Below, piece by piece: positions 45,975-56,231 of a DNA stretch of 64,000 bases (its first letter is position 1; each line of letters begins with the position of its first letter). The notes under the pieces were generated by a model that did no database searches, was not told where the DNA came from, and worked only from the letters and a program-made list of their open reading frames with translations. The position numbers and the translations under genes were made by a program. The stretch is from Tagaea sp. (GTDB lineage Bacteria; Pseudomonadota; Alphaproteobacteria; CACIAM-22H2). The DNA lies in NCBI GenBank assembly GCA_965279525.1, contig CBDIIB010000005.1, forward strand, positions 1,407,018 through 1,471,017. The letters run 5' to 3'.

Positions 45975-47583
45975 ACTAACTAGCTCGATGCTTACGGTGG
46001 TTTGTCATGATTAGCAGTGAACCTTCGAATGTATGCTTCATGCGCTTTCGCAAGCAATGCTTAGATTGTGCTTCCCGCAATACTGAGTCATCGCGATCTA
46101 AAATCAACTGGCACCAACTAAAGTTGCGGGAAGGTAATTCGCAACGAGCAACAGGATAGTTAAGGAAACAGCGAGTATAGATAGCCCAACCGCAGACTCA
46201 GTTGCAGCGCTCTTGAGCCTGGATGTTCGCAAAATCCGCTGTCCAGTGTCAGATCGAACAGCTGCCGCAACCTCTTCTAACCAACCGCTGAGATTCCCAA
46301 TCGGTGGCGCAATGAGGTTGGATTTTTGAAATTTGGCGACTGCATCGCCATAAATATTCATTCTATTTAGTGCATGCTGTGCATTAAATGCGCGTTTGCG
46401 GATCCGCGGAGCGATTTCGCGGCGTATCAAACTGGCATCAACTTTATACTTAAGCGCGAGCATCGCTATACTTGGTGGTATGACGGATGAATCTAAGTCG
46501 ACGTCAAGGAGCCACGATACCGCCTCTTCAGGCTTTTCGTTGAGTAGCGCTGAGAGGAACCGTAGTATTTCATCGGTAAGTATAACTTCATCCGAATCGA
46601 CTGCGGACAATTCAATATCCCGGTAGTAGCGTGCCGACGGGATCTCAGATCCCACCTGAAACCTTTTCGACATTTCTGCACTATCAATTAGTCCGCGCAG
46701 AGCAGACCAAAATAGATCAGAAACACCTAACTTTATTTGCCTTGGCTCTTCTGATCTAGCAGTGTTGATGCCTTGGAGCGCTATTGCAATTCCTGCAATG
46801 AACGAAATCACCCCAGCAATAAACGTTAAGAACTTTGCCGGAAGCAGCACCGCTTCGGAAAGACCGATACGAGATGCAACAAGTGTGAATAGTGTTTTTT
46901 CGGTAGCAGCAACATCTGGGTAGGCAACCAAAGGCCAAGATATCCCCTCAATTCGTGCCGTAATCGATATCGTTCTTACGTCGATTCTTCCAGCAGCCAG
47001 AATTAAAAATGAAATCGAGTCATTCGAGTTTAGAAGGTTATGGGCAACTTCGATGCTCTTCTCATCATACTTCAATGAAGCGTCTAACCTTGGAGGATTG
47101 GTGCCAACTAGCTCCGCTTTAACAATGCGACCAGTCGAAAATTCTAACTTAACTGGCGCCTCGATTTCATTTTTACGGATTGATGATTTTCCGGTGTTTC
47201 TTAGGACAATATTGATTTGCGTCGGATCTTGGACGGGCTGCCCCAGATATCGAATCTCGATGTCAGCAGGCCGCGAAATCGCCGATGCCAAAAGGGACTG
47301 AGCTTGACTGATCTCGATAGTGATTTGCCGATTGGCGCTAAACTGATCTGCGACGTAGATATAAGCAGAGAAAATTAAAGTTAAAATTCCAGCCCATGCA
47401 CCTAACTTCTCAATCGACCGCTTGTCTATCGAGCTCCTGCCGGGTGCTGTTCCATTTTCGTCGGCCATCGATCACCGAGAAATTCTTATAGTTGTAACGT
47501 TATACTACAAAGTATTGAATGAAAATAGATATCGCCATTTCAAACCAAACCCGAAGAAATTATTTGATCGCAAAATTATCGAC
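45975..47583. other. Compositionally anomalous AT-rich island of about 1.6 kb, inserted between the hisN-like and hbd genes, carrying one orphan gene
   Basis: There is an abrupt drop in GC relative to both flanks, with AT-rich intergenic arms on both sides (46000-46100 and 47470-47580). No integrase or repeats were seen. Confidence 0.7.
46104..47468 (-). CDS. Orphan hypothetical membrane protein (3 predicted TM helices), low-GC, likely horizontally acquired
   Basis: The 454-aa ORF fills the island, and its codon usage is AT-rich unlike its neighbours. TM segments are near residues 22-43, 208-232 and 428-448. No known domain was recognised. Confidence 0.65.
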   Translation of the reverse strand: MADENGTAPGRSSIDKRSIEKLGAWAGILTLIFSAYIYVADQFSANRQITIEISQAQSLLASAISRPADIEIRYLGQPVQDPTQINIVLRNTGKSSIRKNEIEAPVKLEFSTGRIVKAELVGTNPPRLDASLKYDEKSIEVAHNLLNSNDSISFLILAAGRIDVRTISITARIEGISWPLVAYPDVAATEKTLFTLVASRIGLSEAVLLPAKFLTFIAGVISFIAGIAIALQGINTARSEEPRQIKLGVSDLFWSALRGLIDSAEMSKRFQVGSEIPSARYYRDIELSAVDSDEVILTDEILRFLSALLNEKPEEAVSWLLDVDLDSSVIPPSIAMLALKYKVDASLIRREIAPRIRKRAFNAQHALNRMNIYGDAVAKFQKSNLIAPPIGNLSGWLEEVAAAVRSDTGQRILRTSRLKSAATESAVGLSILAVSLTILLLVANYLPATLVGAS

Positions 47584-48456
47584 CTAGCGCGTTGGGACGG
47601 GCTTGGGCCCCGAATAGTCGTAGAAGCCGCGCTTGGTCTTGCGGCCGAGCCACCCGGCCTCGACATACTTCACCAGCAGCGGGCAGGGGCGGTACTTCGA
47701 ATCCGAAAGCCCGTCGTACAGCACATGCATGACGGCAAGGCAGGTATCCAGACCAATGAAGTCGGCAAGTTCGAGCGGGCCCATCGGATGGTTGGTGCCT
47801 AGCTTCATCGCCGTGTCGATCGATTCGACCGAACCCACGCCTTCGTACAGCGTGTAGACGGCCTCGTTGATCATCGGCAGCAGGATGCGGTTGACGATGA
47901 AGGCCGGGAAATCCTCGGCCGTGGCCGACGTCTTGCCGAGCTTGGCGGTCAGTTCCTTGACCTGCTCGTAGGTCTCGTTCGACGTGGCGATGCCGCGGAT
48001 CAGCTCGACCAGCTGCATGATTGGCACGGGGTTCATGAAGTGCATGCCCATGAACTGCGCGGGCCGGTCGGTGGAAGCACCCAGGCGCGTGATCGAGATC
48101 GAAGATGTATTGGAAGCTAGCAGCGCACTCTTCTTCAGGTGCGGGCAGAGCTTCTTGAAGATCTCGCGCTTGACCGCTTCGTTCTCGGTCGCCGCCTCGA
48201 TGACGAGGTCGGCATCGGAGAAGAGCGAGAAGTCGGTGCCTGTGGCGATATGCGCGAGCGCCGCGTCCTTCGCGGCCTGGGTCATGGCCCCCTTCTTGAT
48301 CTGGCGGTCCATGTTGCCGCCGATCGTCGCCAGCGCCTTGGGCAGCGCTTCGGGGTTGGCGTCGGCCAGCCGCACGTCGAAGCCGTTCATGGCGCAGACA
48401 TGGGCGATGCCGTTGCCCATCTGGCCCGCGCCGATCACACCGATCTTCTGGATCAT
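47584..48456 (-). CDS. hbd: 3-hydroxybutyryl-CoA dehydrogenase
   Basis: IGVIGAGQMGNGIAHV is an NAD Rossmann motif, and the 3HCDH N- and C-domains are present. Confidence 0.9.
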   Translation of the reverse strand: MIQKIGVIGAGQMGNGIAHVCAMNGFDVRLADANPEALPKALATIGGNMDRQIKKGAMTQAAKDAALAHIATGTDFSLFSDADLVIEAATENEAVKREIFKKLCPHLKKSALLASNTSSISITRLGASTDRPAQFMGMHFMNPVPIMQLVELIRGIATSNETYEQVKELTAKLGKTSATAEDFPAFIVNRILLPMINEAVYTLYEGVGSVESIDTAMKLGTNHPMGPLELADFIGLDTCLAVMHVLYDGLSDSKYRPCPLLVKYVEAGWLGRKTKRGFYDYSGPKPVPTR

Positions 48457-48478
48457 CTTGTTCCCCTGAAAAGTCGAA

Positions 48479-49420
48479 CTATTTGCGCGCCGGCAAGGCG
48501 GCCGTCAGCTCGGGCACGAGCTTGAAGAGATCGCCCACCACGCCGTAGTCGGCGATCTGGAAGATGGGCGCTTCCTCGTCCTTGTTGACCGCGACGATGA
48601 CCTTCGAGCCCGACATGCCGGCCAGATGCTGGATGGCGCCCGAAATGCCGATCGCCACGTAAAGATCCGGTGCAACTACCTTGCCGGTCTGGCCGACCTG
48701 GTAGTCGTTGGGCGCGAAGCCGGCATCCACGGCCGCGCGGCTGGCACCCACGGCGGCCCCCAGCTTGTCGGCGAGCGGCTCGAGATACGTCTTGAAGTTC
48801 TCGCCCGACGCCATGCCGCGTCCGCCCGAGACGACGATCTTGGCAGCCGTCAGTTCCGGGCGTTCGGACTTCGACAGTTCCTGCTTCACGAACTTCGTGA
48901 GGCCGCTTTCGGCGGCGCCCGCAGCCGCCTCGACCGGGGCCGAACCGCCGAGGGATGCGGCCGGGAACGCGGTCACGCGCACCGTGATGATCTTGATCGT
49001 GTCCTTGGACTGGACGGTCGCGAGTGCGTTGCCGGCATAGATCGGGCGCACGAAGGTGTCCGAACTCTCGACCGCGATGATGTCGGAGACCTGCATCACG
49101 TCGAGCAGGGCGGCCACGCGCGGCATCAGGTTCTTGCCCTGCGTCGTCGCGGCCATCAGCAGGTGCGTGCGGCCGGCGGCGAGCTTGACCAGCAGCGGCG
49201 CCATGTTTTCGGGCAGCGAATTGGCGAGCGACGCGTCGTCGGCATGCAGCACCTTGCCGATGCCGGCGATCTTCGCGGCTTGCTCGGCTACGGCGGAAGC
49301 ACCGGAACCGGCGACGAGCACGTCGACCGGCACGCCGAGTTTCAGGGCCGCGGAAACCGCGTTGAGCGTGGAGGGGCGCAGGGCCGAACCGTCATGCTCG
49401 GCGATCACGAGAGCGGACAT
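48479..49420 (-). CDS. etfA: Electron transfer flavoprotein subunit alpha
   Basis: The FAD-binding C-terminal domain ([15 protein letters not shown]) is present. Confidence 0.9.
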
Positions 49421-49421
49421 G

Positions 49422-50171
49422 TCAGATCACCTTCGCTTCGGTCTGCAGCTTCGTCACCAGCGTTGCGATGTCTGGCAGCTTGACGCCGCCGGCGCGCTTG
49501 GGCGGTTCCTCGACCTTGAGCGTGACGAGGCGGGGGGCGACGTCGACGCCGAGCGCATCGGGCGTCACCGTCTCGATCGGTTTCTTCTTCGCCTTCATGA
49601 TGTTGGGAAGGCTCGCGTAGCGCGGCTCGTTGAGGCGCAGGTCGGTCGTGACGACCGCCGGCAGCTTCGTGGAAATCGTCTCGAGGCCGCCGTCGACCTC
49701 GCGCACCACTTCCATTGTGTCGCCGGCGGGCGAGATCTTCGACGCGAACGTGCCCTGCGGCCAGCCCAGCAACGCGGCCAGCATCTGGCCCGTCTGGTTG
49801 CAGTCGTCGTCGATCGCCTGCTTGCCGAGGATGACGAGCCCGGGCTGCTCCTTGTCGACCAGCGCCTTCAGGCACTTGGCCACCGCGAGCGGTTGGAGTT
49901 CGCCGTCGCTCTGCACGAGGATGCCGCGGTCGGCCCCCATAGCGAGGGCGGTGCGCAGCGTCTCCTGGCACTGGGCAACACCCAGCGAGACCGCGACCAC
50001 TTCGGTCGCAATGCCCTTTTCCTTCAGGCGGACGGCTTCCTCGATCCCGATCTCGTCGAACGGGTTCATCGACATCTTGACGTTGGCGAGCTCGACGCCC
50101 GACTTGTCGGCCTTCACGCGGATCTTGACGTTGTAGTCGACAACCCGCTTGACCGCGACCAGCACTTTCAT
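49422..50171 (-). CDS. etfB: Electron transfer flavoprotein subunit beta
   Basis: [19 protein letters not shown] is a canonical EtfB N-terminus. The start is at the internal Met of ORF 49422-50186. Confidence 0.9.
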
Positions 50172-50255
50172 CTCGGAAATCCGCACCTTTCGAATGACGG
50201 CAGAAGGTGCCGGACAATAGGTGCTGGGCCGCTTTGCGTCAACGTGCCGGGCGGC

Positions 50256-50822
50256 TCAGGTGCGGTTCTTGCCGGGCACCCACAGCACGTCGCCCGCCCC
50301 GTCGCCGTTGGCATGGCGCGAGAGCACAAACAGATGGTCCGACAGGCGGTTGATGTAGCGGATCGCGGCGGGGTTGACTGTCTCGGTCGTGGCCAGGCGC
50401 ACGATCTCGCGCTCGGCACGCCGCGCCACGGTGCGCGCCAGATGCAGGTGGGTGGCGACGGCAGAGCCGCCGGGCAGGATGAAGGAGTCGAGCGGGGCGA
50501 GCTTCGCGTTCATCGCGTCGATCTCGCGCTCGAGACGCTCGACTTGCGCCTCGCTGACGCGCAGCGGCGGATATTTGGGATCGGCCACCTCGGGCGTGCA
50601 CAGGTCCGCCCCAAGGTCGAACAGGTCGTTCTGGATCGCAGCCAGCATCGCATCGATGCCGCCTTGCGCATGCAGGCGCGCGATGCCGATGCAGGCGTTG
50701 GCTTCGTCGACCGTGCCGTAGGCCGCCACGCGCGCGTCGAACTTCGGCACGCGCGTGCCGTCGCCAAGCGACGTCTGACCGGTGTCGCCGCCCTTGGTGT
50801 AGATGCGCGTGAGCTTAACCAT
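50256..50822 (-). CDS. ATP:cob(I)alamin adenosyltransferase, PduO type
   Basis: IYTKGGDTGQTSL is a canonical PduO N-terminal motif, and the protein is 188 aa. Confidence 0.85.
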   Translation of the reverse strand: MVKLTRIYTKGGDTGQTSLGDGTRVPKFDARVAAYGTVDEANACIGIARLHAQGGIDAMLAAIQNDLFDLGADLCTPEVADPKYPPLRVSEAQVERLEREIDAMNAKLAPLDSFILPGGSAVATHLHLARTVARRAEREIVRLATTETVNPAAIRYINRLSDHLFVLSRHANGDGAGDVLWVPGKNRT

Positions 50823-51033
50823 GGGTGTTGCGCAGCCAGGCGTAGAGGGCGAGCAGCGCCAGCGCCAATGCCTGCAGCCCCACGCGCCAGCGCATCATGC
50901 GGTTGCCGTGGCGGCGGTTGAAATCGCCGCCCTGCGCCACGCCGCCAAGGCCGGTGAACAGCGAGGCGACCACGCCAAGCACGACGAGGCCGATCACGTA
51001 GGGCAGGACCTTGAGGACGATCTCCATCGCCAA
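50815..51033 (-). CDS. Twin-transmembrane-helix small protein
   Basis: The 72-aa protein has two hydrophobic helices with an Arg-rich linker. Confidence 0.5.
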   Translation of the reverse strand: MAMEIVLKVLPYVIGLVVLGVVASLFTGLGGVAQGGDFNRRHGNRMMRWRVGLQALALALLALYAWLRNTHG

Positions 51034-51060
51034 TTACCTAGTGCGCGCCGGGCGCCGCGT

Positions 51061-51330
51061 CTAGCGCCGCTTGAAGCGGAAGTCGCCGCGCGCGTCCTCG
51101 AGCTCGCCCAGCAGGGCAAGCAGGGCCTTGAATTTGGGGCCGATCGCGGCACCGGCCTTTGCCGCACCCCGCCAGACGATCTCGAACGGGCCGGGCACGT
51201 CGCGCAGCAGCACGTCCCACAGTGCATCGAGATTGGACGAGAAATAAGCAGGGAACGCGAGGTCGGCAGCGAGCTTCGCGTAGACCTTCTCCATGCTGTC
51301 GTGGGTCTCGTCGAGCCGGGCGCGCTTCAT
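51061..51330 (-). CDS. Barstar (barnase inhibitor / immunity protein)
   Basis: LAFPAYFSSNLDALWDVLLRDVPGPFEIVW aligns to barstar [30 protein letters not shown]. Confidence 0.8.
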   Translation of the reverse strand: MKRARLDETHDSMEKVYAKLAADLAFPAYFSSNLDALWDVLLRDVPGPFEIVWRGAAKAGAAIGPKFKALLALLGELEDARGDFRFKRR

Positions 51331-51764
51331 CGCGGAACCTCGCGGAATGTGGCGTAGTGATCGACCGTGACATAGACAAGCCGGTCGCTGGAGAAGACGA
51401 GACGCCTGGCATTGCGCCGCCCGCAGTCGAAATCGAGATCAGCCTCGGTCCAGCGCCGGCCGGGCGCTGCCGGCAGGCGACCTTCGCGGTTGGAGAAGCG
51501 GTCGCCGCCGATGGCGCGGCCGTCCGCGACGCGGCACAGATCGTCGCCCGGCCGCCAGCCCAGCTTCGCGGCCGCGTTCTTGTCGATGTAGCGGGTGGCC
51601 GGAAGGCGGCCGGTCTCGCGCACGCTGCGAACCGTCTCGACGAAGCCGTCCACGTCGGAAAGCCGCATCTCGCGCGCGAAACGCCGCCAGTCGGCCTCGC
51701 CGGCCGATGCCGGCAGCGCCAACGCGACAAGTGCGGCGACGAGGACGGCGAGAAAGCGGCGCAT
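51327..51764 (-). CDS. Secreted ribonuclease, barnase / microbial RNase N1-T1 family
   Basis: A signal peptide is followed by the motif GGDRFSNREGRLP ... GRRWTEADLDF ... FSSDRLVYVTVDHYATFREV, which matches the barnase catalytic core (GGDIFSNREGKLP ... RTWREADINY ... YSSDWLIYKTTDHYQTF). It overlaps the barstar start as ATGA. Confidence 0.8.
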   Translation of the reverse strand: MRRFLAVLVAALVALALPASAGEADWRRFAREMRLSDVDGFVETVRSVRETGRLPATRYIDKNAAAKLGWRPGDDLCRVADGRAIGGDRFSNREGRLPAAPGRRWTEADLDFDCGRRNARRLVFSSDRLVYVTVDHYATFREVPR

Positions 51765-51765
51765 C

Positions 51766-53397
51766 TCAGTTCCGCTTCTCCAAGAGGCCGCGCACGATCA
51801 CCTGCGCCTGGATCTCGGCCGCCCCTTCGAAGATGTTGAGGATGCGCGCGTCGGCGAGCAGGCGCGAGGCGGCGTATTCCTCGGCATAGCCGTTGCCGCC
51901 GTGGATCTGCACGCAGTCGTCGGCGGCGGTCCAGGCCGCGCGCGCGGCGACGAGCTTGGCCATCCCGGCTTCCACGTCGCAGCGCTTGCCTTCGTCCTTG
52001 GCGCGCGCGGCGGCCCGGGTCAGCACGCGCGCGATCGTCGTCTCGACCGCCATCATCGCGATCTTGGCATGCACGCGCGGGAAGGCGACGATGGCCTTGC
52101 CGAACTGCTTGCGCTGGCGCGCGTAAGATAACGCTTCGAGCGTGGCGGCTTCCGCCACGCCCACGGCGCGCGCGGCCGTCTGGATGCGCGCGGATTCGAA
52201 CGTCGCCATCAGCTGGCGGAAGCCTTCGCCCTCGGTCCCGCCGAGCAGGCCGTCTGCCGGTACGGCGAATCCGTCGAAGGCAAGCTCGTATTCCTTCATG
52301 CCGCGATAGCCGAGCGTGCGGATCTCGCTGCCCGTCAGGCCCGCGACGGGGAAGGGATCGGTATCGGTGCCACGGGGCTTGGGTGCCAGGAACATCGAAA
52401 GCCCGCGATGGTCCTTCGATGCCGGATCAGTGCGTGCCAGCACGGTCATCAGGTCGGCGCGTGCGGCATGCGTGATCCAGGTCTTGGCACCCGTGATGCG
52501 CCACACGGCCCCGTCGCGCACCGCGCGCGTGCGAATCGAGCCGAGATCGGAACCGGTATCCGGCTCGGTGAACACGGCCGTGGGCAGGCACGAGCCGTCG
52601 GCGATCTTCGGCAGCCAGTGCGCGCGCTGCGAATCCGTGCCGCCCAGCCGCACCAGTTCGCTGGCGATCTCCGAGCGCGTGGCAAGCGAACCGGTGGCGA
52701 GGTGGGCGCGCGACAGCTCCTCGCTCGTCGTGCACATCGCGATCTTGCCCAGCCCCGATCCGCCGTACTCTTCGGGCACGCACAGGCCGAACACGCCCAG
52801 CTCCGCCAATCCTTCGACGACCGACAGCGGGATGATCGCGTCGTCGCGGTGCCAGGCTTGGGCAAACGGATCGATCTTCGCCGCGGCGAAGCGCCGCAGC
52901 TGGCTGCGCATCTCGGCCAGTGTTTCGTCCGCTTCGTCGGCATCCGGTGCGATCGAACCGTCGAGAAGGGCGACAAGTGCCGCGCGCGCCGCGGCAAGAT
53001 CGTCGCCGGCCAGGAACGAGGCGACCGCCGGGTCGGCGGCAAGTGCAGCCGCCTCGGCGGCGAGGCCCATTTCGGCGGGGCGCAGCGTCTCGTTCTGCGC
53101 CAGCGGCAGGCCGAAGGCGAGGCGGGCGAGATATTCGCCGAATCCCAGCCGAAGGATCGCAGGCACGCGCGCGTCGCTGCGGCCCTGGCCGGCAAGCGTG
53201 TCGGCCCACCGCGCCAGGCCGTCGAGGGCGGCCACGCTCGCGGCAAGCCACGCGAAGCCGTGTGCCGCACTCTGGTGGGTTTCCAGTATTGCCGGATCGA
53301 CCCGGCCGTCGCGCACGAGCAGGTGCACGAACCGCGCGCGGGCGGCGGATTCGTAGCGGCGGGCGGCGGCAAGCGCCTCTTCGGTGCGGCGATCCAT
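51766..53397 (-). CDS. Acyl-CoA dehydrogenase (long form with N-terminal extension)
   Basis: ACAD middle and C-terminal domains are present (TEPDTGSDLGSIRTRA ... QIHGGNGYAEEY). Confidence 0.85.
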   Translation of the reverse strand: MDRRTEEALAAARRYESAARARFVHLLVRDGRVDPAILETHQSAAHGFAWLAASVAALDGLARWADTLAGQGRSDARVPAILRLGFGEYLARLAFGLPLAQNETLRPAEMGLAAEAAALAADPAVASFLAGDDLAAARAALVALLDGSIAPDADEADETLAEMRSQLRRFAAAKIDPFAQAWHRDDAIIPLSVVEGLAELGVFGLCVPEEYGGSGLGKIAMCTTSEELSRAHLATGSLATRSEIASELVRLGGTDSQRAHWLPKIADGSCLPTAVFTEPDTGSDLGSIRTRAVRDGAVWRITGAKTWITHAARADLMTVLARTDPASKDHRGLSMFLAPKPRGTDTDPFPVAGLTGSEIRTLGYRGMKEYELAFDGFAVPADGLLGGTEGEGFRQLMATFESARIQTAARAVGVAEAATLEALSYARQRKQFGKAIVAFPRVHAKIAMMAVETTIARVLTRAAARAKDEGKRCDVEAGMAKLVAARAAWTAADDCVQIHGGNGYAEEYAASRLLADARILNIFEGAAEIQAQVIVRGLLEKRN

Positions 53398-53446
53398 GCG
53401 CGCATGCTATAGAGCGTTTTCGCGTTCCACCACAAGCGGACCCGCC

Positions 53447-54292
53447 ATGTCGTTTCTCGACCGAATCGCCGAGTGCAATGCCCACGATCCCGCCGCCTAC
53501 CGCCCGCTGACCTGTGCGGGTCACGCGATCGGCGCTGTCCGGCATCGGCTGGCCGAGCGACTGCGCGACTTCCCGAACGTCTTCGCGGTCTCGCAAAGTG
53601 CCGTCCATCTGTCGGATGCGTTCAAGGATGCCGACCAGCGCAGCCAGGCGGTCGAGCGCGTGGTGCGCGTGCTGGAAGCCGACGGCATCGTGCGCGGCCG
53701 GCGCGACGAGGCCTATCCGGTGCTGGTCAATTGGGGCGAGGCGCCGCTGCTGCGAATCGAGCGCGCGGCGGCCCCGCATTTCGGGATCCGTTCGTATGGC
53801 GTGCACATGACGGGATATGTGCGCACGCAAGACGGCCCGCTGATCTGGGTGGCGCGGCGTGCCAGGAACAAGCCCACATATCCCGGCATGCTCGACAACA
53901 CGGTCGCCGGGGGGCAGCCCGTCGGTCTCGGGCTCCACGACAACATGGTCAAGGAGTGTTGGGAGGAAGCCGGCATCCCCGAGGAACTCGCGCGCAAGGC
54001 GGTGTGCACGGGTGCCATCACCTACCGGATGGATGCCGAGGACGGCCTGAAGCCCGATGTGCAGTTCTGCTTCGATCTGGAACTGCCCGCCGATTTCGTG
54101 CCGCGCAACACCGACGGCGAGATCGACGAGTTCTTCGCGTGGCCGTGGCGCAAGGCCGCCGAGGTCGTTTCCGAGACGCGCGAATTCAAGTTCAACTGCA
54201 ATCTCGTGCTGATCGATTTCTTCGTGCGCCACGGGCTGGTCGATCCGGGTCGTGCCGACTATCTCGACATTGTCGCCGGTCTGCGTCGCTGA
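53447..54292 (+). CDS. NUDIX hydrolase with N-terminal DUF4743-like domain
   Basis: The Nudix box GGQPVGLGLHDNMVKECWEEAGI is present. Confidence 0.75.
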   Translation: MSFLDRIAECNAHDPAAYRPLTCAGHAIGAVRHRLAERLRDFPNVFAVSQSAVHLSDAFKDADQRSQAVERVVRVLEADGIVRGRRDEAYPVLVNWGEAPLLRIERAAAPHFGIRSYGVHMTGYVRTQDGPLIWVARRARNKPTYPGMLDNTVAGGQPVGLGLHDNMVKECWEEAGIPEELARKAVCTGAITYRMDAEDGLKPDVQFCFDLELPADFVPRNTDGEIDEFFAWPWRKAAEVVSETREFKFNCNLVLIDFFVRHGLVDPGRADYLDIVAGLRR

Positions 54293-54320
54293 TAGCTTTC
54301 CGGCAATCCTGGAGGAACGC

Positions 54321-55151
54321 ATGCCCGTCGCCGACATGAGCCTGACCGAGGCGGAGATCGCCGCGTTCCATCGCGACGGCTACGTGCTGCGCCGCGCGCT
54401 GTTCGCGCCCGAAGAGATCGCGATGCTCTCCGACGCGATCGTCAACGATCCGGCGATCGCGAAGAACACCTATGTGCGGCCCGACAGCAAGGGGGCATCG
54501 ACCGAGCTCGCGTTGTGGAACCATCCCGGCGACGACGTGTTCGGCGCCGTCGCGCGCTCGGCGCGAATCGTCGATTCGATGGAGAAGCTTCTCGGCGGCG
54601 AGGTCTATCACTGGCATTCGAAGCTGACGATGAAGCGTCCGAAAGTCGGCGGTGCGTGGGATTGGCACCAGGATTACGGCTACTGGTACAAGAACAACTG
54701 CCTGTTCCCGCTGATGGCGAGCGTGTTCATCTCGGTCGATCCGTCGACACGCGAGAACGGCTGCCTCGAGGTGCTGAAGGGTTCGCACCATCTGGGGCGG
54801 CTCGAGCATGGCGTCGTCGGCGGGCAGGTGGGTGCCGACATGGAGCGCGTCGAGGCGGCGCTGAAGGTGCTCGAGCACGTTTACGTCGAGCAGGCGCCGG
54901 GCGACGCGCTGTTCTTCCATTCCAACACGCTGCACACGTCGGGGCAGAACAGGTCGGACAAGTCGCGCAACGTTCTGCTGTGCTGCTACAACGCGGCGCG
55001 CAACAGCCCGTTCCGCGAGACCTCGCACCCGTCGTATCGCAAACTCCACAAGCTGCCCGACGGCGCCGTCCTCGCGTCGGCCGCGCGCACGACGGTCGGG
55101 CAGGATTTCTACCGGCCGGCCCCGCGCGTGCCGGCACCGGCCAAGGGCTGA
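54321..55151 (+). CDS. Phytanoyl-CoA dioxygenase (PhyH)-family Fe(II)/2-oxoglutarate oxygenase
   Basis: It has a WHQDYGYW (HxD) facial triad and a distal His (FFHSNTLHTS). Confidence 0.75.
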   Translation: MPVADMSLTEAEIAAFHRDGYVLRRALFAPEEIAMLSDAIVNDPAIAKNTYVRPDSKGASTELALWNHPGDDVFGAVARSARIVDSMEKLLGGEVYHWHSKLTMKRPKVGGAWDWHQDYGYWYKNNCLFPLMASVFISVDPSTRENGCLEVLKGSHHLGRLEHGVVGGQVGADMERVEAALKVLEHVYVEQAPGDALFFHSNTLHTSGQNRSDKSRNVLLCCYNAARNSPFRETSHPSYRKLHKLPDGAVLASAARTTVGQDFYRPAPRVPAPAKG

Positions 55152-55333
55152 GACGATAGCCGCGCAAGCGGGATCGGGACGCGGGCTTCCTGCGATGCCG
55201 CCGGGTCGGGCGCAGGCGGCCCGTGGATCAGCCATGCGAGTCCGTCGACGAGCACACGCAGCGTGACCGCCAGAGTTCCGATGCCGAACGGCAGGGCGAA
55301 ATAGATCGCGATGGCGACAAGGAAATTGGACAT
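55109..55333 (-). CDS. Small hypothetical membrane protein (74 aa, N-terminal TM)
   Basis: This ORF begins immediately beside an AT-rich 55-bp element and overlaps the 3' end of the PhyH gene on the opposite strand. It may be spurious. Confidence 0.25.
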   Translation of the reverse strand: MSNFLVAIAIYFALPFGIGTLAVTLRVLVDGLAWLIHGPPAPDPAASQEARVPIPLARLSSQPLAGAGTRGAGR

Positions 55334-55394
55334 TGGCGAGCCTTTCGGCAGGCAGAATAGTAAAATTTACAATTAATTTTAATCAAACTCAATT

Positions 55395-56231
55395 TTATAT
55401 CGTAAACCCAAGATCGATAACGATTTTCCGGGGATCTTCGCCTGCTGCCCGTAGGTCGGCGAGGCGGGTCGAACCAAGGCGCTTGGCCAGCCGCTTGCCG
55501 TCGGCGTCGAGCAGCAACCGATGGTGCTGATAGGCCGGCACGTCGAGGCCCAGCAGGGCCTGTAGCAGGCGATGCAGGTGGGTGGCGACGAACAGGTCGG
55601 TGCCGCGCGTGACGAGGTCGATGCCCTGTACATGGTCGTCGTGCACGACGGCCAGATGATAGCTCGCCGGGAATTCCTTGCGCGCGAGCACGGCATCGCC
55701 GAGTGCTTCGGGCGTGGCGCGCTGCGTGCCTGCATCGCGGTCGTGCCAGTCGAGCGGCCCGGTCTGCGAAACAGCCTTCGCGACATCGAGGCGCAGCGCA
55801 TAGGCGGCCCCCGATGCCACGCGCGTGGCGACATCGTCGGCACTGCGGTGCCGGCAGGTGCCCGGATAGATCGCGCCATCGCCGTGCGGGGCGCCGCCGG
55901 CCGCCTCGATCTCGCGCGCGATGTCGGCGCGCGTGCAGAAGCATTTGTAGAGAAGCCCCTTGGCCTCGAGTTTGGCTAGTGCTGCGGCATACTCGGCCAT
56001 GTGGTCGGACTGGCGGCGCACCGGGCGCTCCCAGTCGAGCCCGAGCCAGGCGAGATCCTCGAGGATGCCGGCCTCGAACTCCGGCCGGCAGCGCGTGCGG
56101 TCGGTATCCTCGATCCGCAGCAGGAAACGCCCGCCGGCGTCGCGCGCGGCCTGCCGCGCGAACAGCGCCGAGAAGGCGTGGCCGCGATGCAGCCGTCCGG
56201 TGGGCGAGGGGGCGAATCGCGTGACGGTCAT
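55395..56231 (-). CDS. gluQ: tRNA glutamyl-Q(34) synthetase
   Basis: The HIGH-like motif FAPSPTGRLHRGHAF is present, and at 278 aa it is a truncated GluRS paralog. Confidence 0.85.
   Translation of the reverse strand: MTVTRFAPSPTGRLHRGHAFSALFARQAARDAGGRFLLRIEDTDRTRCRPEFEAGILEDLAWLGLDWERPVRRQSDHMAEYAAALAKLEAKGLLYKCFCTRADIAREIEAAGGAPHGDGAIYPGTCRHRSADDVATRVASGAAYALRLDVAKAVSQTGPLDWHDRDAGTQRATPEALGDAVLARKEFPASYHLAVVHDDHVQGIDLVTRGTDLFVATHLHRLLQALLGLDVPAYQHHRLLLDADGKRLAKRLGSTRLADLRAAGEDPRKIVIDLGFTI

Follow-up and report, generated by a model that had tools for sequence, protein, structure and literature searches.

A predicted secreted barnase-type RNase and its barstar-type inhibitor at a conserved energy-metabolism locus of an alphaproteobacterium

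A 64-kb window of a Tagaea sp. genome (by window we mean the whole stretch of DNA that was analysed) carries, on its minus strand, two small overlapping genes, which we assign to a barnase-type guanyl-preferring RNase precursor and a barstar-type RNase inhibitor. The two very likely constitute a classical, intact barnase/barstar module, here in a diderm alphaproteobacterium, whose RNase may serve in scavenging, the likeliest of the roles considered. The pair is maintained by purifying selection and occupies a position among energy-metabolism genes that is conserved across related bacteria. Below we describe the two proteins, their export signals and their genomic setting, and then weigh the roles that such a pair could play in its host.

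Results

The RNase and its predicted active site

The RNase gene (51327..51764, minus strand) encodes a precursor of 145 amino acids, identified by Pfam, PDB and Foldseek comparisons and an AF2 model, in which a signal peptide is followed by a short conserved N-terminal helix and then by the barnase fold. The match to PF00545 reached 44.3 bits (E=2.7e-11), against a curated Pfam cut-off of 24 bits, and a phmmer comparison with the PDB returned binase and barnase at E = 2e-28 to 6e-25, with approximately 46-52% identity across the core. The AF2 model (mean pLDDT 88.4) led to the same proteins: binase and barnase were the best PDB matches in Foldseek (TM 0.84-0.87, rmsd 1.6 Å over 102-105 residues), and every one of the top 49 PDB entries was a barnase or a binase (target-normalised TM 0.82-0.87, rmsd 1.5-1.9 Å). 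As modelled, the RNase has the alpha+beta barnase fold, with N-terminal helices packed on an antiparallel sheet. NCBIfam yielded zero models for either the RNase or the barstar. An initial annotation, made from the sequence, had described a 145-residue barnase-type RNase at this locus; its coordinates, strand and length proved right, and the RNase peptides that it quoted (GGDRFSNREGRLP, RRWTEADLDF and SDRLVYVTVDHYATF) were located in the open reading frames of the window.

Alignment with barnase places the general base Glu73 at Glu107 (codon 51444..51446, minus strand) and the general acid His102 at His136 (codon 51357..51359, minus strand). Both residues are kept in 81 of the 82 sequences compared (the window RNase and 81 relatives). 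The RNase has therefore not lost its catalytic Glu/His equivalents, a loss that the initial annotation had said would refute its reading. Barnase Lys27, Arg83, Arg87 and Tyr103 correspond to Lys62, Arg117, Arg121 and Tyr137, and each of these six catalytic residues is retained in 81-82 of the 82 sequences. Barnase Asp54 and Phe56-Glu60 also map to identical residues; the guanine-recognition loop FSNRE (residues 90-94) is thus identical to Phe56-Ser57-Asn58-Arg59-Glu60 of barnase. With the exception of the Ser57 position, which is variable, the active-site and guanine-loop set is the same in 80-82 of the 82 sequences. The protein is predicted to act as a metal-independent, guanine-preferring endoribonuclease.

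The cysteine pair and the export signal

Two cysteines, Cys77 (codon 51534..51536, minus strand) and Cys114 (codon 51423..51425, minus strand), are predicted to be the two halves of a disulfide. They align with the cysteines of PDB entry 1bne, at barnase positions 43 and 80, and fall exactly at the A43C/S80C disulfide that was engineered into barnase and verified crystallographically (1bne and 6pqk; the identity of the mutants was taken from the PDB entry titles, that of 1bne being 'barnase A43C/S80C disulfide mutant'). The two positions covary, as both cysteines are present in 73 of the 82 sequences and neither is present in 9. The location of the pair at positions 43 and 80, together with this covariation, fits oxidative folding outside the cytoplasm, and a Cys77-Cys114 disulfide probably locks the RNase fold.

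The N-terminus suggests how the RNase could leave the cytoplasm. Residues 1-21 (51702..51764, minus strand) form a predicted Sec signal peptide, whose n-, h- and c-regions (MRR, FLAVLVAALVALAL and PASA) were read by eye, and export is predicted to end with cleavage between Ala21 and Gly22. The hydrophobic core between MRR and PASA spans 14 residues by this heuristic reading, and the Kyte-Doolittle profile (12 residues per average) peaks at 3.15 over residues 4-15. A hydrophobic N-terminus is kept in an alignment of 17 sequences and, by a count that relied on naive start calling, in at least 67 of 81 loci. The signal peptide that had been proposed earlier is a prediction, now accompanied by its three regions and by a conserved hydrophobic N-terminus. 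Tat export, which could be read from the opening MRRFL, was rejected because the twin arginine is not conserved (relatives carry KR, HR, RK or RQ) and because the signal is short, with a very hydrophobic h-region. Sec export plus periplasmic oxidation would also suit the conserved cysteine pair. In a diderm bacterium, Sec delivers proteins to the periplasm only.

The barstar and the junction between the two genes

The second gene (51061..51330, minus strand) encodes a barstar-type RNase inhibitor of 89 amino acids, recognised through Pfam, PDB and residue alignment. It is assigned to the cytoplasm as a protein without a signal peptide; a hydropathy search for a hydrophobic N-terminal segment in the barstar found none. 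The protein matches PF01337 with 58 bits (E=9.4e-16; curated Pfam cut-off 23.4 bits) and barstar in the PDB at E=4e-6, and the peptides by which it had first been recognised (FPAYFSSNLDALWDVL and FEIVW) lie in an open reading frame of the window. Tyr29, Asn33, Asp35, Trp38, Asp39, Trp53 and Glu76 are the same-numbered residues of Bacillus amyloliquefaciens barstar. The acidic inhibitory surface is retained, comprising a DxxxD motif on helix 2 (Asp35 and Asp39) together with Tyr29, Trp38 and Glu76. Among 77 barstar sequences (that of the window and 76 relatives), Asp35 is invariant (77/77), 76 retain Asp39, 76 retain Asn33, and 68 have an acidic residue at position 76. Judging from these sequence comparisons, the barstar is predicted to inhibit the RNase.

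The two genes overlap by the four bases ATGA (51327..51330, minus strand; tcat on the plus strand), where the TGA stop of the RNase gene shares three bases with the barstar gene that begins at this ATG, as had been described initially. Of the 78 related loci with a barstar, approximately 22 show the identical 4-nt overlap. A candidate Shine-Dalgarno-like motif, GAGG (51338..51341, minus strand), lies 7 nt upstream of the barstar ATG, within the end of the RNase gene. The overlap is consistent with translational coupling of the RNase and the barstar.

Genomic neighbourhood

Upstream of the RNase gene lies a gene for an acyl-CoA dehydrogenase (ACAD) of 543 amino acids (51766..53397, minus strand), which contains all three ACAD Pfam domains and an N-terminal extension of approximately 157 residues without a Pfam match. 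At the junction (51765..51768, minus strand), the TGA stop of the ACAD gene (51766-51768) is followed by a single spacer base and then by the RNase ATG, so that the pair does sit immediately downstream of this gene, as first stated; the same spacing is seen in two related loci (L002 and L003). Downstream of the barstar, on the same strand, runs a conserved cluster (47584..51033, minus strand), whose members were identified with Pfam and NCBIfam: a twin-TM-helix small protein (50815..51033), a PduO-type cob(I)alamin adenosyltransferase (50256..50822), etfB (49422..50186), etfA (48479..49420) and hbd (47584..48456). The twin-TM protein and PduO, which separate the barstar from etfB, were absent from the initial annotation. 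A consensus terminator scan of positions 47000-55500 found none, and a consensus promoter scan returned a lone promoter-like site within the cluster, preceding etfB; in DNA of 68% GC both scans are uninformative.

The pair heads the twin-TM/PduO/etfBA/hbd cluster in many Rhodospirillales-like genomes. Approximately 25 related loci are syntenic, and the synteny holds across RNase identities from 92% down to approximately 53%. Azospirillum thermophilum has the cluster without the barnase/barstar pair. The ACAD gene is a variable neighbour: it is present in nine syntenic loci and missing from approximately seven, that is, about half, and it is missing even from other Tagaea genomes. The initial annotation found it odd that the pair should lie inside a beta-oxidation block made up of ACAD, etfAB and hbd. 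All of these genes are present, with etfB, etfA and hbd downstream on the same strand, but the arrangement is not peculiar to this genome, and the genes that stay beside the pair are those for the twin-TM protein, PduO, etfBA and hbd rather than ACAD. The position of the pair among energy-metabolism genes is a case of conserved synteny, inherited across related bacteria. A functional link between the pair and ACAD was not supported, since ACAD is gone from about half of the syntenic loci.

Distribution, selection and origin

Relatives occur in at least 518 species-representative genomes, the nearest being those of Tagaea sp. (92% and 85% identity), and Rhodospirillales-like and Geminicoccaceae genomes commonly carry the pair. 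A barstar lies directly downstream of the RNase in 78 of the 81 loci fetched, as counted by an HMM search of stop-to-stop translations. A six-frame HMM search of the 64-kb window itself returned a single copy each of the RNase and the barstar. Such pairs had been called sparsely characterised in Proteobacteria. This stands as far as the literature is concerned, where our search for barnase homologues characterised in Gram-negative bacteria or in Alphaproteobacteria found only a comparative-genomics survey from 2012 (Zhang et al., 2012), but the pair itself is not rare.

Against seven orthologues, dN/dS was 0.07-0.34 for the RNase and the barstar, with similar values in adjacent housekeeping genes; both genes are under purifying selection. 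The GC content of the pair equals that of its neighbourhood, a search for phage relatives of the pair gave zero matches, and 53 of 55 plasmid matches fell in Firmicutes, the other 2 in Proteus. We rejected an origin by horizontal transfer or as part of a genomic island on the grounds of the flank-like GC content, the conserved synteny, the lack of phage matches and the finding that only the two Proteus plasmid matches lay outside Firmicutes.

Two of the syntenic relatives (L039 and L046) have lost the barstar and also carry substitutions in the guanine-recognition loop. These loci amount to a small natural experiment and are consistent with an inhibitor that is indispensable only as long as the RNase is active.

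Discussion

We propose that the 145-residue precursor would be made in the cytoplasm, exported unfolded through Sec by means of its 21-residue signal and cleaved between ASA and G. The RNase would then fold outside the cytoplasm, where Glu107 could act as the general base and His136 as the general acid. The transition state would be stabilised by Lys62, Arg117 and Arg121, and guanine would be recognised by the FSNRE loop. The barstar would remain cytoplasmic and, through the ATGA overlap, be translationally coupled to the RNase. Should an RNase molecule fold before it is exported, the barstar would block its active site, with the acidic Asp35/Asp39/Glu76 surface facing the Lys/Arg/His site. 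As to the role of the module, we see an even chance that the RNase, retained in the periplasm or released, scavenges extracellular RNA for nucleotides and phosphate and is not a weapon. We infer this role by exclusion. Two observations count against it: we saw no Pho-type regulation, and the RNase gene appears to be co-oriented and tightly packed with genes of central metabolism, not with genes for nucleotide uptake.

Active barnase is lethal in the cytoplasm, and the RNase studied here bears a predicted secretion signal. Both points would suit a bacteriocin-like toxin/immunity pair, in which the secreted RNase enters and kills competing bacteria and the barstar confers immunity. Moreover, the barnase domain is a recognised module of polymorphic toxins, and the order of toxin followed by immunity gene is typical (Zhang et al., 2012; PMC3482391). 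We nevertheless consider such a role unlikely. The mature RNase, of approximately 124 residues, would consist of the barnase fold and one short helix alone; it has no receptor-binding or translocation domains, no RHS or filamentous repeats and no T5, T6 or T7SS marker, and the 64-kb window holds no further toxin or immunity cassettes. The dN/dS values give no hint of the diversification that an arms race would bring, and the vertical inheritance of the pair at a fixed core-genome position, with no phage relatives and two plasmid relatives from Proteus, also speaks against a weapon. A cytoplasmic inhibitor would be needed equally under scavenging and hence does not discriminate between the two. 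Of the two roles that the initial annotation offered, interbacterial antagonism is thus the less likely one, because of the purifying selection, the lack of a delivery domain and the core-genome synteny. A polymorphic toxin system (CDI, Rhs, T6SS or T7SS delivery) was rejected as well. Its toxin domain would close a large protein with trafficking, repeat or pre-toxin domains, and it would show orphan cassettes and diversifying evolution, whereas the RNase has 145 residues with a signal peptide alone ahead of its fold, and both genes are single-copy, under purifying selection and fixed in their syntenic position.

There is a slim chance that, in a Rhodospirillales clade, the pair has been domesticated to open a transcription unit of core energy metabolism, which would comprise ACAD (where present), barnase, barstar, the twin-TM/HIG1 protein and PduO, and would possibly extend into etfBA-hbd. 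If this were true, RNase export would be linked with how strongly fatty-acid/ETF catabolism is expressed, perhaps within a starvation programme in which a switch of carbon source is coupled to the breakdown of extracellular or periplasmic RNA or to the production of 2',3'-cyclic nucleotides. The stable synteny over approximately 50% protein divergence would then reflect function and not inertia.

Very improbable is an intracellular toxin-antitoxin or abortive-infection module, in which depletion of the barstar would leave the RNase active inside the producing cell. Small overlapping genes and a toxic RNase beside a tight-binding inhibitor are what such a module would look like, and RelE and the barnase fold are both placed in the BECR assemblage (Zhang et al., 2012; PMC3482391). 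However, the RNase has a conserved, cleavable signal-like N-terminus and a covarying cysteine pair suited to an oxidising compartment, its toxin-first gene order is the reverse of that in most type II toxin-antitoxin systems, and the locus is not set in a mobile or defence-island context. PADLOC defence models match neither protein, which also led us to reject membership of a defence system. It is hardly credible that an inactive RNase and a functionless partner have been kept by chance as a decaying relic: decay does occur in the lineage, as the lost barstar and altered guanine loop of L039 and L046 attest, but in the window all catalytic, substrate-binding and interface residues are intact, both reading frames are complete and dN/dS is well below 1 against the seven orthologues.

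In biological terms, the pair adds little that is new, being a textbook secreted-RNase/inhibitor pair in another lineage. Barnase (B. amyloliquefaciens) and binase (B. pumilus/intermedius) belong to the N1/T1 microbial RNase superfamily (PF00545) as extracellular, guanyl-preferring enzymes. The window RNase shares with them the predicted fold, the catalytic set and the FSNRE loop, as well as a predicted N-terminal secretion signal and a barstar-type inhibitor gene. It differs in that its host is a diderm alphaproteobacterium, where a protein exported by Sec would get no further than the periplasm without an additional step, and in that the ATGA overlap joins the inhibitor gene to that of the RNase. 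Unlike barnase, it also has an extra conserved helix (residues ~21-32, FAREMRL) ahead of barnase helix 1. Furthermore, wild-type barnase has Ala43 and Ser80, and both barnase and binase are without cysteine at these two positions, in contrast to the Cys77-Cys114 pair of the window RNase. Nature appears to use the 43-80 disulfide that engineers introduced into barnase, which provides natural sequence data for a model of protein folding and stability.

The inhibitor can be compared in the same manner. The window barstar has the same 89 residues in length as that of B. amyloliquefaciens (PF01337, 'Imm-Barstar'), and the two are in gapless register over residues 9-61. Identity is approximately 42% over the N-terminal 43-residue core, the C-terminal half is divergent, and Thr42, Trp44 and Glu80 are replaced by Leu, Asp and Ala, respectively. 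E. coli RNase I, a periplasmic, Sec-exported, metal-independent enzyme of the T2 family with broad specificity, is thought to be an RNA scavenger. It offers a functional analogy only, since its fold is unrelated and it has no barstar-type inhibitor co-encoded in an overlapping gene.

The 'simple barnase-barstar gene pairs' described by Zhang et al. (2012; Biol Direct 7:18, PMC3482391) resemble the window pair in consisting of a stand-alone secreted barnase followed by a barstar, without polymorphism (PMC3482391). The window pair differs from them in lying in a conserved core-metabolism neighbourhood and in being common in Rhodospirillales-like and Geminicoccaceae genomes. The phyletic list given for Tox-Barnase includes beta-, gamma-, delta- and epsilon-proteobacteria and leaves out alphaproteobacteria (PMC3482391). 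In Alphaproteobacteria, the group that is missing from the 2012 list, stand-alone pairs are common and are inherited vertically.

Results

The two genes lie on the minus strand, the RNase ORF at 51327..51764 (145 aa) and the barstar ORF at 51061..51330 (89 aa), and are joined by the plus-strand tcat at 51327-51330 (ATGA on the coding strand), in which the RNase TGA stop overlaps the barstar ATG; a GAGG motif is located 7 nt upstream of this ATG. At its other end, the RNase start codon (ATG, 51764-51762) lies a single spacer base away from the stop codon (TGA, 51768-51766) of the acyl-CoA dehydrogenase gene (ACAD; 51766..53397, minus strand, 543 aa, with three acyl-CoA dehydrogenase domains in Pfam). 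The window contains one copy each of the RNase and barstar genes, and no second copy of either.

The RNase scored 44.3 bits against Pfam PF00545 (cut-off 24), and its residues 52-143 matched binase and barnase PDB sequences (E = 2e-28 to 6e-25). A structure modelled with AlphaFold2 from 17 homologues (mean pLDDT 88.4) was compared with the PDB using Foldseek, and the top 49 matches were all barnase or binase (target-normalised TM 0.82-0.87, rmsd 1.5-1.9 Å, 102-105 columns). Moreover, barnase K27, D54, E73, R83, R87, H102 and Y103 correspond to identical residues K62, D88, E107, R117, R121, H136 and Y137, as does the F56-S57-N58-R59-E60 loop to F90-S91-N92-R93-E94, a mapping with which the alignment lines of the PDB matches agree. 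Thus, the catalytic Glu and His (E107 and H136), whose absence the initial annotation had named as evidence against its reading, are both present. A further conserved helix, helical in the model, spans residues ~21-32 (51669-51704, minus strand; consensus FAREMRL), after the signal peptide and ahead of the first barnase helix; its F29/A30/R31/L35 are nearly invariant within the clade. This helix lacks an equivalent in mature barnase and may belong to the mature enzyme or to a pro-segment.

The barstar ORF reached 58 bits against PF01337 Barstar (cut-off 23.4), and its residues 9-61 matched PDB barstar without gaps (E = 4e-6). Residues Y29, N33, D35, W38, D39 and W53 are identical with unchanged numbering, while E76 pairs with E76 in the multiple alignment. 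Among the window barstar and 76 relatives, D35 is found in 77/77 sequences, D39 and N33 in 76/77, and an acidic residue at position 76 in 68/77. Pfam, PDB matches and residue mapping therefore agree with the gene identities proposed in the initial annotation, and all the peptides it quoted were found in the window ORFs.

RNase residues 1-21 read MRR, FLAVLVAALVALAL and PASA, followed by GE, i.e., a positively charged n-region, a hydrophobic core of 14 residues (Kyte-Doolittle 3.15) and, at -3 and -1, small residues. This signal-like layout recurs in 17/17 aligned homologues and, despite crude start calling, in at least 67 of the 81 related loci; in barstar, no hydrophobic signal-like N-terminal segment was observed. 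Since the twin RR varies among homologues (KR, HR, RK, RQ), Tat export is disfavoured relative to Sec. The RNase also contains Cys77 (codon 51534-51536, minus strand) and Cys114 (51423-51425, minus strand), which are invariant in the close clade and correspond in the alignment to barnase residues 43 and 80, where a stabilising disulfide has been engineered (PDB 1bne, 6pqk); the best-scoring barnase entry among the PDB sequence matches was 1bne, titled 'barnase A43C/S80C disulfide mutant'. Both cysteines occur in 73 of 82 sequences (the window RNase and its 81 relatives) and the remaining nine lose both together, as expected for a structural disulfide. We infer that Cys77 and Cys114 form such a bond, which would fit an oxidising, extracytoplasmic folding compartment; the disulfide engineered into Bacillus barnase seems to occur naturally in proteobacterial barnases.

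A protein search returned 459 RNase relatives at E ≤ 0.001, many of them named 'ribonuclease T1' or 'ribonuclease domain-containing protein' by their sources, and two peptide patterns alone identified at least 518 (one genome per species). The best 80 of these at least 518 fall into Tagaea (at 92%, 85% and 76% identity), Geminicoccaceae, Telmatospirillum and further MAGs resembling Rhodospirillales; numerous Enterobacterales (Pantoea, Erwinia, Enterobacter, Providencia, Xenorhabdus, Serratia, Yersinia, Morganella); and Betaproteobacteria, Bacteroidota and Spirochaetota. A Tagaea-like alphaproteobacterium is thus the most probable source of the window. When the stretch downstream of each RNase gene was searched with an HMM, barstar was detected directly after the RNase gene at 78 of the 81 loci, and about 22 of these share the ATGA overlap. 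Two alphaproteobacterial MAGs of the same synteny (L039:6481-6861 and L046:4798-5148) carry the RNase gene without barstar within ±7 kb; in these RNases Glu73/His102 are kept and the guanine-recognition loop FSNRE is altered to FRDRA or YVNAD. Assembly error is possible, and the two loci are consistent with inhibitor loss being tolerated only once the RNase is weakened. In Pantoea sp. Mb-10 (L078:7001-7258), the barnase homologue appears intact, retaining both the catalytic residues and the Cys pair, and no barstar-like ORF was detected across the 14-kb locus; its inhibitor may have diverged beyond detection or have its gene at another site.

The minus strand of the window reads, tightly packed, ACAD, RNase, barstar, twin-TM, PduO, etfB, etfA and hbd. 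Barstar is followed after 27 nt by the gene for a twin-TM-helix small protein (HIG_1_N / NF033233), which overlaps the PduO-type cob(I)alamin adenosyltransferase gene by 8 nt; 69 nt then precede etfB. The upstream divergent gene encodes a DUF4743/NUDIX protein. The block with ACAD, etfAB and hbd is thus present as the initial annotation described, but the position of the pair in it, which that annotation called odd, is not peculiar to this genome, since about 25 alphaproteobacterial loci share this order, with RNase identity from 92% down to ~53% (tblastn against related loci). ACAD is present in nine syntenic loci and missing from about seven, where DUF4743 directly adjoins the RNase gene, and both states occur among Tagaea-labelled loci; in Azospirillum thermophilum, the genes from twin-TM through PduO, etfB and etfA to hbd are present but the pair is missing. 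Hence, the pair was inherited at the 5' border of a cluster that is older and conserved widely, with ACAD as a variable neighbour. In Geminicoccaceae and Gammaproteobacteria, the pair resides in other gene contexts. Consensus scans detected no terminator in the region and a single promoter-like site inside the cluster, in front of etfB. In the neighbourhood comparison, nothing indicated that the pair is functionally tied to beta-oxidation, and we regard it as unlikely that the RNase is functionally wired into the ETF/fatty-acid operon.

Several features of the surroundings were also observed. ACAD residues 1-157, a ~157-residue N-terminal extension, have no Pfam match, and ACAD reached no NCBIfam equivalog cut-off (best, acryloyl-CoA reductase, 273 bits vs 640). 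Called as longest ORFs, DUF4743/NUDIX begins at 53384 (plus strand) and ACAD at 53397 (minus strand), so that the two calls share 14 nt (53384-53397); translation of DUF4743 probably starts instead at an internal ATG near 53447 (MSFLDRIAE...), which leaves only ~50 bp for divergent promoters. Between hbd and the inositol-monophosphatase (IMPase) gene lies a low-GC island of ~1.5 kb (46000-47550; GC 0.44-0.48 vs ~0.68 elsewhere) with a 454-aa ORF (46104..47468, minus strand), which has stretches that look hydrophobic and membrane-like by eye and is without a Pfam or PADLOC match. Since IMPase directly follows hbd in three orthologous loci (L003, L007, L083), the island represents a strain-specific insertion of foreign origin.

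Discussion

Our results make quite probable a picture in which an exported RNase is produced with a coupled cytoplasmic barstar. The pre-RNase would leave the cytoplasm through Sec, lose its signal peptide by cleavage after A21 and fold outside, probably with the C77-C114 disulfide. Using E107/H136 as in the acid-base mechanism of barnase, it would cut RNA on the 3' side of guanosines. Barstar, translated from the RNase mRNA by coupled translation, would remain cytoplasmic and block prematurely folded RNase through D35/D39/E76. Within this picture, RNA scavenging in the periplasm or medium has an even chance of being the physiological role.

The initial annotation also considered interbacterial antagonism. 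The pair would then act as an arms-race toxin and immunity protein. We consider this improbable, because dN/dS against seven orthologues (RNase 0.10-0.30; barstar 0.07-0.34) falls in the range of PduO, ACAD and the twin-TM gene, the pair has the same GC (0.66-0.72) as its surroundings, and both genes are single-copy in the window. Moreover, a protein-level search gave no match among 50,697 phage records and 55 matches in 72,556 plasmids; 53 of these plasmid matches belong to Firmicutes, chiefly Bacillus and Clostridium, and the other two to Proteus. The same results, along with the lack of PADLOC defence-model matches for RNase or barstar, disfavour a mobile addiction module or a defence system. 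We favour a stably maintained, 'domestic' exported RNase with its inhibitor.

In the literature searched, we found no paper characterising a barnase/barstar pair in a Gram-negative host, and alpha-proteobacteria are absent from the Tox-Barnase phyletic list of a 2012 survey (PMC3482391). The finding is an ordinary one, a further member of a known system: the pair matches Bacillus barnase/barstar in all defining sequence features, but differs in its diderm host, a natural predicted 43-80 disulfide, one extra conserved N-terminal helix in the RNase and a fixed position in front of a core-metabolism cluster.
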